Source: a virus. Taken from it: a DNA stretch of 64,000 bases. Where the stretch lies: positions 96,911 to 160,910 of the IMG/VR virus record IMGVR_UViG_3300020048_000023. One strand, given 5' to 3'. Shown here piece by piece: positions 6,591 through 62,879 of this stretch (its first letter is position 1; every line of letters begins with the position of its first letter). The notes beneath the pieces are model-generated. The model was not told the DNA's origin. It ran no database searches and saw only the letters and a list, made by a program, of their open reading frames with translations. Made by a program: the position numbers and the translations under genes.

Positions 6591-6714
6591 AGAAGTTAAA
6601 CATAAACACAGCATTGAGCTGGGCGATAATCTTACTTACCTGTTATGGGTATTGGTTGTGGCTGGATTTCTTTTCGGAATGTCTTACTTCCACTTGTGGG
6701 ATGGATTAAAATAA
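6580..6714 (+). CDS. 44-aa single-TM microprotein
   Basis: Not in ORF track; MENKEVKHKHSIELGDNLTYLLWVLVVAGFLFGMSYFHLWDGLK fills the gap. Confidence 0.65.
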   Translation: MENKEVKHKHSIELGDNLTYLLWVLVVAGFLFGMSYFHLWDGLK

Positions 6715-6717
6715 GCT

Positions 6718-7110
6718 ATGGAAAACTGTCAATTTGTTAAGGATTGTATAGCCCTGAAAGTGGGCGAGTCGATACAGCTACCGACGCTTAGCTTCGATGA
6801 ACTGTTCAACCTGAAATACCCAGCCGAGGCTACGGAAGACCCTATGCAGTTATTTTTGTTCAGTAAGTTCCGCATCACAGCCGAAACTGCCACGGATAAC
6901 GAAATGCGCCGTTGGAACGGTAAGGATTCAAGAAAGGATGAAAACTTCATTCGACACATATGCCCAGCTGGTACCACGGTACTGGTATGGATGGTATCAC
7001 GCTTCGGCGACGTAGGCGTAACCAATATACTGGTCGATGCTGTGGGTTACGATACAAGAATTGATCAAAGTACACTTATTAATTGGGTTATAACCCGCAA
7101 AGAAGATTAA
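6718..7110 (+). CDS. hypothetical protein
   Basis: 130 aa, MVSRFGDVGVT motif. Confidence 0.75.
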   Translation: MENCQFVKDCIALKVGESIQLPTLSFDELFNLKYPAEATEDPMQLFLFSKFRITAETATDNEMRRWNGKDSRKDENFIRHICPAGTTVLVWMVSRFGDVGVTNILVDAVGYDTRIDQSTLINWVITRKED

Positions 7111-52698: not shown

Positions 52699-52758
52699 TT
52701 TATTTGGTAGAGTCAAAAACTTGTTGTATATTTGCAGCCTAATCTAAAACAAACGGCA

Positions 52759-52950
52759 ATGTTCAAAGTAAAACACAGGAAACACAATGTAGTAACCTTT
52801 GAGGGTACTATGGAATTGGAAGAAGTCCTAAAGCTAAAAGCGATGGACAAGTTAATAAAACACCTGTTATCCTTAAACGAAAATTTCTACCTATTTATAG
52901 GCGTTGAGGGCGCTTGCGGTGAAGAGTGGAACATAACTTACACAGTATAA
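52759..52950 (+). CDS. hypothetical protein
   Basis: 63 aa; ACGGCA-ATG leader. Confidence 0.7.
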   Translation: MFKVKHRKHNVVTFEGTMELEEVLKLKAMDKLIKHLLSLNENFYLFIGVEGACGEEWNITYTV

Positions 52951-53200
52951 GAGAAAAGGCTGCCCCTGTGGTTCTGCCCCTATCCGCGGGGGAGTTACAG
53001 ATTCAGCGCATACCTTCGGGAAGAGCGCACACAGGGGGCGGACAGCCTCTAAGATAAGGACAACCGTTGGCAGGACGGTCTTGGGGTGAGTTTACAGACA
53101 AATCAATCTGTACGCAAGCGATACCTCGGCTGCTAACGATGTACAAATGATGCGCCTCTAAGGGTGGTTTGATACCCAACCGATCGGGCGCATTTGCCGT
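52951..53200 (+). ncRNA. GC-rich multi-domain structured ncRNA candidate
   Basis: Three closed multi-helix domains, cUUCGg and GCAA loops, T-loop-like GGGT-GGTTTGAT-ACCC; no ORF. Confidence 0.7.
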
Positions 53201-53276
53201 TTAATTTATTTTGTAAATTATTTGGTATTGTCAATTATTAGTTCTATATTTGCACCCTAATCTAAAACATACGGCA

Positions 53277-53549
53277 ATGAAATTCTTTCAGATCACAGTA
53301 ACAGAAATCGAGGGTACACCCAATGAAATCCTTGCTAAGGTTTACAGACAAAACAATATGGAACGCGCTGCTTGCTTCGCTGAAAGTGGTGGACTAACAA
53401 TGGAAGAGCGTTTAGGCGAAGGTAAATGTCCTGCGTGCGGTAACACCGAATGGGATGTAAAACCATTTGCCTATAATGACTATATGAACGGTGGCAACGG
53501 CAAACCAAACATTGAATGTCGCAACTGTGGTCACATAACCCACTTATAG
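53277..53549 (+). CDS. Zn-ribbon protein
   Basis: CPACG...CRNCG. Confidence 0.75.
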   Translation: MKFFQITVTEIEGTPNEILAKVYRQNNMERAACFAESGGLTMEERLGEGKCPACGNTEWDVKPFAYNDYMNGGNGKPNIECRNCGHITHL

Positions 53550-61411: not shown

Positions 61412-61624
61412 ATGAGCAAAAATGTAAAATGGGCTGGCGAAACTCCAAAGGAGTGCGACATATGCCACAAACCAATAACGGATAAATTTGTAGATGGCTC
61501 TTTCACTGGCACAAATCACTGGGGTATATTTTGCCCTGTTTGTTATCAAAAATTAGGCAACGGCTTCGGACTCGGCAAAGGTCAAATGTACGAAACAGCC
61601 ACAGGCAATAAGATTTTAGGATAG
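61412..61624 (+). CDS. Zn-binding small protein
   Basis: CDIC...FVDG...WG..CPVC...G.GLG.GQ.Y. Confidence 0.8.
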   Translation: MSKNVKWAGETPKECDICHKPITDKFVDGSFTGTNHWGIFCPVCYQKLGNGFGLGKGQMYETATGNKILG

Positions 61625-61646
61625 TTCATTTGCCGTGAATCTCCGC

Positions 61647-61694
61647 CCGCCCCCGCACGAAACTCCGACACGTGCATCAGGGGCGGGTTTTTTT
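61647..61694 (+). terminator. intrinsic terminator
   Basis: CCGCCCC...GGGGCGG followed by a T-run. Confidence 0.65.
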
Positions 61695-61979
61695 ATGTCT
61701 ATATGATAACTTGTACCGCACCCGCCCGCACACGCAAACCCGCATTGGCGTAACGCACACACGACGTATGCACCGCACCCGCATATGTGCGCCCGCACCC
61801 GCTATATGTCTATATGATTATTTAACCGCACACGCTATACTATATATAGGGGCTTATTTAGACTGATTATTAATAACAAAAATTTCAGATTAATTCGTAC
61901 AAAAATTTGGTAGTGTCAAAAATTGGTTGTAATATTGCAGCCTGATCGGGACAAATTCGGTCAGGTAAAATTTACGGCA

Positions 61980-62879
61980 ATGTTTTTAATAGGAAGTGAA
62001 AAATCGATCAATGCAGTTGAACTGCTAATGAAAACGGGCTTGGATTGGTCAGTTTCAAAAGAAAAATTACAAACCGAATCGGGTATTGTTACCGATCACG
62101 TTGCAATCGTTCGGGAAGATACAAAAAGTATCTTAGGCGTACACAAATCGGGGTACGAAGTATTTCAGAATCAGGAACTTGCAGAATTAATTCTCGACCT
62201 GTCAAAGGTTGCAGATGCTCCGCTCCATTCGTTTGGAACTCTTAAAGACGGTGCAAAAGTGTACATTCAGCTGAAAACAGGTAACACACGCATTCGCAGA
62301 CCTGACGGCACAATGGACACCATTGAAGGCTACGGCACTGTAGTAAATTCGTTCGACGGCTCGACCTCGTTGGGTATCGGAATCAGCACCAAAACAATAT
62401 CCTGTATGAACACTTTTTTTGCCGCCTACAGGCAGTTAGATAGCAAAATTAAGCACACCAAAGGAATGACGGTAAAAGTTGAAGACCTGCTCCGCTCCAT
62501 GGATATTTTCCGCAAAGATGAATCCGCACACTTTGAACTCATTAGCCGCCTCGCACAGACTCCGATTACCGCACAGGCGATAGATACCGTTTACAAAAGT
62601 ATGTTTGACGTAAGCTTTGCCGAAGCTCAGGCAAACCGCACCGCAAAGGTGGACGCTCGCACCCTCAGCACCAAAAAAACAAACCTGATCGAAACCTTTA
62701 CCCTCGACACCGCAAACCAAATCACAGACAAGGGCGAAACCCTGTGGGGCTTGTTCTCAGGTATCACAAAATACACTACTCACAGCCTCGGGGCTGACAG
62801 TGAAGAGGCAAAAATGTTCGGCTCTGTTGCCTCGAAAGAAAGGGTAATTTTGAGCAAATTTGCAGACCTCGTAAAGTAA
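61980..62879 (+). CDS. DUF932 domain protein (phage/plasmid type)
   Basis: GLDW.V, VREDT...LG....Y.VFQN, G.L..G.KVYI, NSFDGS, CMNT, KHT, TLWGLFSGIT.Y..H. Confidence 0.88.
   Translation: MFLIGSEKSINAVELLMKTGLDWSVSKEKLQTESGIVTDHVAIVREDTKSILGVHKSGYEVFQNQELAELILDLSKVADAPLHSFGTLKDGAKVYIQLKTGNTRIRRPDGTMDTIEGYGTVVNSFDGSTSLGIGISTKTISCMNTFFAAYRQLDSKIKHTKGMTVKVEDLLRSMDIFRKDESAHFELISRLAQTPITAQAIDTVYKSMFDVSFAEAQANRTAKVDARTLSTKKTNLIETFTLDTANQITDKGETLWGLFSGITKYTTHSLGADSEEAKMFGSVASKERVILSKFADLVK

Follow-up and report, generated by a model that had tools for sequence, protein, structure and literature searches.

A GC-rich island among early phage cassettes

The locus described here lies in an uncultured giant phage represented by an IMG/VR virus record of 160,910 bp, the final 64 kb of which form the analyzed stretch (hereafter the window). 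The record has an estimated completeness of 67% (CheckV) and a GC content of 0.40, and the phage has no close cultured relative, with the top isolate match at ~33% amino-acid identity. It encodes 28 tRNA genes, a homolog of Ro60 (TROVE+VWA), an RNA ligase and a Cas3-like helicase. The Ro60 homolog (L124:690-2126, genome 23690-25129) matches TROVE at 5e-19 and carries a VWA domain. Repeated structured elements lie upstream of its gene (genome 22700-23450). Also upstream, an 89-nt match to the Rfam tRNA model (37.5 bits, genome 23030-23118), at which ARAGORN makes no call, may be either a tRNA carrying an insertion or a tRNA-like Y-RNA module. The Cas3-like helicase-nuclease is 741 aa long and combines HD, DEAD-helicase and Cas3 C-terminal domains (L124:8938-11160, genome 31938-34163).

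Promoters in this phage are of the Bacteroidota type, and TANNTTTG boxes occur 165 times in the whole window versus an expected 75. In the last 18 kb, these -7 boxes are found mainly on the + strand, inside near-identical promoter blocks. The RNA island (genome 149861-150110) sits here among small early-type cassettes arranged in series, each with a near-identical promoter. It is bordered by a 63-aa ORF upstream and by the promoter of a 90-aa gene downstream (Table 1). Neither the 63-aa ORF nor a 216-aa ORF has a match in Pfam or PHROGs. The 90-aa ORF gives only sub-threshold matches in these two collections, such as a rubredoxin-like domain at 17.1 bits versus a cut-off of 26.5; a PDB profile search with its product returned only coiled-coil noise, and the AlphaFold model is of low confidence (pLDDT 63).

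Table 1 Features of the RNA island and its flanks (window coordinates)
Feature	Position	Strand	Remark
Bacteroidota-type promoter of 63-aa gene	52700-52740	+	-7 box TATATTTG at 52727-52734
63-aa ORF	52759-52950	+	Same stop codon with or without the RNA
Module D1	52957-53048	+	~92-nt three-way junction
D1 P1a	52957-52962 with 53043-53048	+	
D1 P1b	52963-52970 with 53030-53037	+	
D1 P2	52973-52981 with 52988-53001	+	5-nt bulge
D1 P2 loop, UCCGC	52983-52987	+	Candidate pseudoknot strand, partner GCGGA
D1 P3, hypervariable hairpin	53006-53028	+	Window copy GCGC..UUCG..GCGC
D1 5-nt bulge between P1b and P1a, GCGGA	53038-53042	+	Candidate partner of P2 loop
Module D2-D3	53060-53194	+	
D2 long hairpin	53060-53142	+	
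D2 basal stem	53060-53073 with 53130-53142	+	
D2 middle stem	53081-53088 with 53122-53129	+	
D2 apical stem	53090-53098 with 53107-53115	+	
D2 8-nt loop	53099-53106	+	Invariant
AUCAA in D2 loop	53102-53106	+	Candidate kissing partner of UUGAU in D3 loop (53169-53173)
D3 9-bp GC-rich stem	53149-53157 with 53186-53194	+	Followed by a 4x4 internal loop
D3 arm	53162-53167 with 53176-53181	+	Loop 53168-53175
U-rich tail after D3	53195-53220	+	Runs into upstream block of next promoter
Promoter and leader of next cassette	53222-53276	+	-7 box at 53245-53252
90-aa CxxC..CxxC (zinc-ribbon-like) gene	53277-53549	+	

The island is noncoding and matches no known RNA family

A sequence-only reading of this stretch had described a GC-rich, ORF-free island holding an unrecognized structured RNA of three domains. 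Its account of the island agrees with our measurements. GC content across 52951-53205 is 0.54-0.56 in 200-nt windows, compared with a background of ~0.40. In 120-nt windows it peaks at 0.62, a value exceeded in the 160.9-kb record only by a tRNA cluster. Two other GC-rich stretches occur near the record end (window 61556-61843, 0.59; window 62543-62756, 0.56; 120-nt windows). All six frames of the island are broken, leaving no convincing ORF (the longest are 43 aa on the + strand and 58 aa on the - strand), and the length of a variable hairpin differs by 2 and 5 nt among relatives. Because such indels are not multiples of three, we ruled out a coding function.

Every stem that had been named is present in both the minimum-free-energy (MFE) and the consensus folds. 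The folding energy itself is within chance: z is -1.5 for the whole region on either strand, 15 and 14 of 200 shuffles are equally stable, and the separate parts have z values of -1.4 to -1.7. The case for structure therefore rests on comparison with relatives.

Searches for a known family were uniformly negative. Rfam 15 gave nothing for the window copy at the gathering score or at E<=10, and nothing for three relatives at E<=5. ARAGORN found no tRNA or tmRNA in the island. Outside it, Rfam and ARAGORN do detect tRNAs in this genome, 25-28 in number. We also set aside several specific candidates. A group I intron is contradicted by the 63-aa ORF, which keeps its stop codon whether or not the element is present, and there is no Intron_gpI match. 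A known riboswitch class was rejected because there is no Rfam match and because the position of the element, between a stop codon and a promoter, is not that of a 5' leader. A likeness of the 5' end to Escherichia coli 4.5S RNA was dismissed because no SRP model matched.

Known copies are few. Covariance models R1-R3 detect no second copy in the phage's own genome, blastn against phage GenBank gives no match to the island, and 20 related large phages (five complete), picked through a 746-aa protein at 56-64% identity, have no island match by DNA or by the three models. Exact and gapped anchors from D1, D2 and D3 returned nothing or GC-rich chance matches in viral, metagenome and genome collections from which near relatives were apparently masked, and the loose pattern GCCTCTAAG..CAACCG produced 120 chance matches and no homologous ones over IMG/VR. 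The two phage RNA modules of the island have not been classified before, and their known distribution is narrow.

Relatives resolve the island into two separable modules

We reached relatives by protein searches with the flanking ORFs, and the resulting contigs yielded 11 informative metagenomic loci (designated by L numbers). Homologs in these searches are 60-88% identical for the 63-aa ORF (n=7), 79-94% for the 90-aa ORF and 32-96% for the 216-aa ORF; the 216-aa family has no match in the genome-contig collection. The full region, with D1 followed by D2-D3, is found in L158/L159/L160, L165 and L162/L163, and it is interrupted by the contig end in L164 and L167. In L170/L171 and L183/L184, D2-D3 stands immediately after the stop codon without D1. 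Conversely, L168, from a more distant phage, has D1 only (105.7 bits), behind a SprT-like gene. D2 and D3 never occur apart, and their loops are complementary.

The island therefore consists of two separable modules, D1 and D2-D3, rather than the single three-domain RNA first envisaged. The alternative offered with it, several small RNAs, comes closer, but the units number two and not three.

Both modules are accessory, since L154-L157 have neither (the gap there is 73 nt) and L152/L153 have lost half the region. The latter loss is a 402-nt deletion corresponding to window 53118-53519, in which D3 and the promoter are gone entirely, together with half of D2 and most of the 90-aa gene. It joins two CGCAA microhomologies (window 53113-53117 and 53520-53524; L152:3360-3375) and fuses mid-D2 to the final codons of the 90-aa gene, showing how cassettes get lost. 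L183 has two paralogs of a 60-aa gene (L183:4360-4542 and 6710-6892); D2-D3 follows one of these, and a promoter comes immediately after the other.

D1 folds as a three-way junction with a variable arm

A model-based alignment of eight D1 copies, seven of them distinct, supports the predicted stems. For P1a, P1b and P2 together with a proposed pseudoknot, 100% of cells are paired, as opposed to 42-58% in slid controls. Three P1 pairs change on both sides (A-U to C-G, G-C to A-U and U-A to C-G), all in L168, and two changes are one-sided; P2 shows U.G/U-A exchanges. The 5-nt bulge of P2 is exactly deleted in L167, which turns P2 into a continuous helix. P3 exists in five versions of 23-29 nt, unrelated or diverged in sequence, and every one of them folds into a hairpin; between versions, CCAGC/GCUGG gives way to CCGAC/GUCGG, a double compensatory change.

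The P2 loop and the bulge between P1b and P1a, UCCGC and GCGGA, are complementary in all seven distinct sequences, including that of L168. This complementarity suggests a candidate pseudoknot, and its geometry would fit the H type, leaving 1-2 nt at the 5' side and no nucleotide at the 3' side. The chance of five complementary bases is 0.003-0.014, for a pair chosen after inspection, and because both strands are invariant the pairing draws no support from covariation.

D1 is also a discrete insertion of ~103 nt with an imperfect direct repeat on its two sides (AGAKAAAAGG / AGAKAAGG), which loci without D1 carry once. An insertion of this kind, located behind unrelated genes in two phages and having a compact, predicted pseudoknotted fold, could be a small RNA that is either mobile, inserting downstream of stop codons, or catalytic, as a self-cleaving ribozyme by which the modules are released. 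Mobility of D1 itself is called into question by the weakness of the repeat in L168, and the movement is accounted for just as well if cassettes are shuffled through the repeated promoters. As for catalysis, models of the known self-cleaving ribozymes (hammerhead, twister, twister-sister, pistol, hatchet and HDV-like) find no match, the CUGANGA/GAAA core is absent and the strand order, compared by inspection, does not fit the HDV fold, on which ground an HDV-like threading was rejected. We consider a mobile or catalytic D1 very doubtful.

D2-D3 is a covarying pair of hairpins with complementary loops

The six distinct copies of D2-D3 pair in 96% of cells, compared with 30-41% when slid. Changes on both sides affect the basal stem of D2 (C-G to U-A in L183) and two pairs of its apical stem, one exchanging A-U and U-A and the other taking three pair types (U.G/A-U/C-G). 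Three exchanges are one-sided; the middle stem of D2 shows G.U to A-U, and the D3 stem shows C-G to U.G and U.G to C-G. In L170 and L183, the D3 arm has a U-A pair in place of the G.A mismatch. Substitutions at unpaired positions fall in linkers, bulges and the edge of the D3 loop and never in the D2 loop or the UUGAU core, both of which are invariant even though the stems beneath them change.

Within these loops, AUCAA of D2 and UUGAU of D3 are complementary in 6/6 copies, with a chance of 0.014-0.054 for a pair chosen after inspection. We regard them as a candidate kissing contact on the strength of this complementarity; as AUCAA and UUGAU are both invariant, covariation does not bear it out.

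Several finer points of the sequence-only reading do not survive the comparison. Its 'GCAA loop' is no tetraloop and falls within a 3' bulge whose sequence differs in relatives. The T-loop-like loop of D3 is unconserved: its length is 8 nt in the window copy and 9 nt in two relatives, and in those two the first U has given way to C or A. Relatives do not keep the duplicated GCCTCTAAG motif in their D3, and in three of them a T-to-A change weakens the alternative ACCGT/ACGGT pairing, possible in the window copy.

Covariation indicates genuine RNA structure

Compensatory pairs among the 11 informative loci support the secondary structures of both modules and the earlier proposal of an unrecognized structured RNA. 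They are narrowly sampled, with those in the D1 stems all from L168 and those in D2-D3 from L170 and L183. Outside P3, the RNA is ~97-98% identical in relatives (~5 of ~215 positions differ from L165 and L162), a level above that of the adjacent 63-aa gene, for which the same two loci have 67-69% nucleotide identity. The downstream neighbors are well conserved too (99-100% for the next promoter and 83-96% for the 90-aa gene in relatives), so the high RNA identity may partly reflect a recently exchanged shared block.

We weighed these results against the possibility of a GC-rich relic without function, in which the stems arose by chance or are mere remnants. An MFE z of about -1.5 and an accessory element partly deleted in some lineages are what a relic might show. 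It would hardly be expected to show compensatory changes in six stem pairs, five structure-preserving versions of P3, the exact removal of a bulge, substitutions that avoid or preserve pairs and conservation exceeding that of the 63-aa gene. The relic reading is disfavored, and we hold it to be highly improbable; that D1 and D2-D3 are genuine structured RNA modules is very likely.

The modules probably lie at the 3' end of an early transcript

Ten G-U pairs, together with the G.U/A-U and C-G/U.G exchanges, fix the RNA on the + strand; a minus-strand RNA was rejected on the ten G-U pairs. No TANNTTTG box is found on the + strand between 52735 and 53244. Because there is no internal promoter, the RNA is predicted to make up the 3' portion of the early transcript of the 63-aa gene, the promoter of which would be the only one able to drive it. 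The U-rich tail after D3 could represent the 3' end of this transcript. A terminator scan makes no call at D3, and the GC-rich base of D3 followed by AUUUGCCGUUU is only loosely terminator-like.

This arrangement raises the main rival to a role in trans, namely that the modules are cis-acting 3'-end elements. They might terminate transcription, insulate one promoter cassette from the next, or stabilize the upstream mRNA by shielding it from 3' exonucleases. D1 begins 6-9 nt past the stop codon in both of its contexts (6 nt after the 63-aa ORF in the window), and the order of GC-rich D3 stem, U-rich tail and next promoter is what such elements would have. Furthermore, the 63-aa homolog of L168 is followed instead by a plain strong hairpin and a U-rich tail (z -5.8), which means that the site tolerates a terminator. 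Against a cis role, an RNA of ~250 nt that has invariant loops and makes two contacts at junction or loop goes far beyond the needs of termination, D3 is not called by the terminator scan, and many cassettes, such as that of L154, do without any such element. D1 cannot be a terminator here, given that D2-D3 comes after it. In addition, the modules occur beside different neighbors, so a cis role tied to one gene is unlikely. Taken together, we consider a cis role at the mRNA 3' end a less probable explanation, although one that deserves serious consideration. The first part of the L168 hairpin (L168:2556-2625; 60 nt, terminator-like) is similar in sequence to the beginning of D1.

In every locus that extends far enough, the same promoter and 90-aa gene come after D2-D3. 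D2-D3 and the 90-aa gene are missing together in L154 and L168, and they are co-deleted in L152/L153. This linkage is a lead for an RNA-protein pair. It could also be mere adjacency, since D2-D3 adjoins the gene and linkage is expected anyway.

Comparison with known RNAs

The phage T4 small stable RNAs C and D are structured RNAs of ~120-140 nt and of unknown function in a tRNA-rich phage, where they lie within the tRNA cluster and are processed together with it. They share with the present modules the character of structured, phage-encoded RNAs in a tRNA-rich phage; the island modules instead follow a protein gene, at a distance of 110 kb from the tRNA genes. Bacterial small RNAs derived from 3' untranslated regions offer a second parallel in their position directly past a stop codon, their lack of a promoter of their own and their stem with a U-rich tail. 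Such RNAs are usually short and expose a single-stranded seed, whereas the island comprises two large, compact modules with few long single strands. THF and SAM-I riboswitches have junction-plus-pseudoknot aptamer folds, which D1 resembles in architecture only: it has a junction, a hairpin loop able to pair at the base of the closing helix and a variable peripheral stem. It differs in matching no Rfam riboswitch, in lying 3' of an ORF and in having no evident ligand or expression platform.

A further comparison, for a phage with a Ro60 homolog, is with YrlA RNAs (RF02553), which are encoded on the same strand as the Ro60 gene and within 4 kb of it, and which are recognized by a GNCGAAN0-1G motif and conserved T and D stem-loops (Chen et al. 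2014, PMC4201824). Like the island modules, they are small (~100 nt), modular, multi-stem RNAs, presumed to bind protein and present in Ro60-carrying phages. The island RNA could be imagined as a tRNA-mimic or Y-RNA-like RNA working with the phage Ro60 and RNA-repair genes, a view favored by the TROVE+VWA homolog, the RNA ligase and the 28 tRNAs of this genome and by the repeated structured elements adjoining the Ro60 gene. However, the YrlA, Y_RNA and tRNA models give no match even at E<=10, and the RNA is ~125 kb from the Ro60 gene, in contrast to the 4 kb of YrlA (PMC4201824). The island has no conserved T or D arms; the GNCGAA motif is missing from the window copy, and the relatives' UUCGAAG lacks its first G. 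Models R1-R3 find nothing else in the genome. With ARAGORN also silent and the T-loop-like loop unconserved, the tRNA mimicry suggested by the sequence-only reading finds no support, and we judge a tRNA-mimic or Y-RNA-like role to be very unlikely.

A tentative model of stable protein-binding RNAs

The explanation that we favor, tentatively, is that D1 and D2-D3 are two independent modules at the 3' end of an early transcript, most likely acting in trans as stable protein-binding RNAs. We chose trans action because the fold and loops are kept beside different neighbors and both modules look tertiary-folded. According to this model, transcription would start at the promoter of the 63-aa gene and carry both modules at the transcript's 3' end. 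D1 would probably be locked by the pseudoknot between the P2 loop and the closing-stem bulge, leaving one peripheral hairpin free to vary, and the hairpin pair of D2-D3 (~135 nt) would probably dock through its complementary loops. The GC-rich stem and U-rich tail of D2-D3 would form or protect the 3' end. Released early in infection, the modules could then serve in trans as a scaffold or decoy, with D2-D3 possibly partnering the adjacent zinc-ribbon-like protein. A protein decoy, which may apply here, was among the suggestions of the sequence-only reading.

A more specific joint reading is that D1 represents a new class of compact pseudoknotted junction RNA, an aptamer for a ligand or protein or else a ribozyme, that moves between early-gene cassettes of phages, and that D2-D3 and the 90-aa protein form a hitherto undescribed anti-host RNA-protein pair, for example a decoy for RNA-targeting defense. 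We consider this combination distinctly unlikely.

Giant phages carry many RNAs besides tRNAs, few of which have a known role. Here, two small modules with clean comparative support, apparent (candidate) tertiary contacts and no family assignment come from the early, host-takeover region of a phage whose genes also include Ro60, RNA ligases and 28 tRNAs. Binding to host or phage proteins, if it occurs, would place them among the few RNA tools listed for phages, and D1 would constitute a new fold class if it binds a ligand or self-cleaves. At 92 and 135 nt, both modules are short enough for direct probing, binding and structure work.
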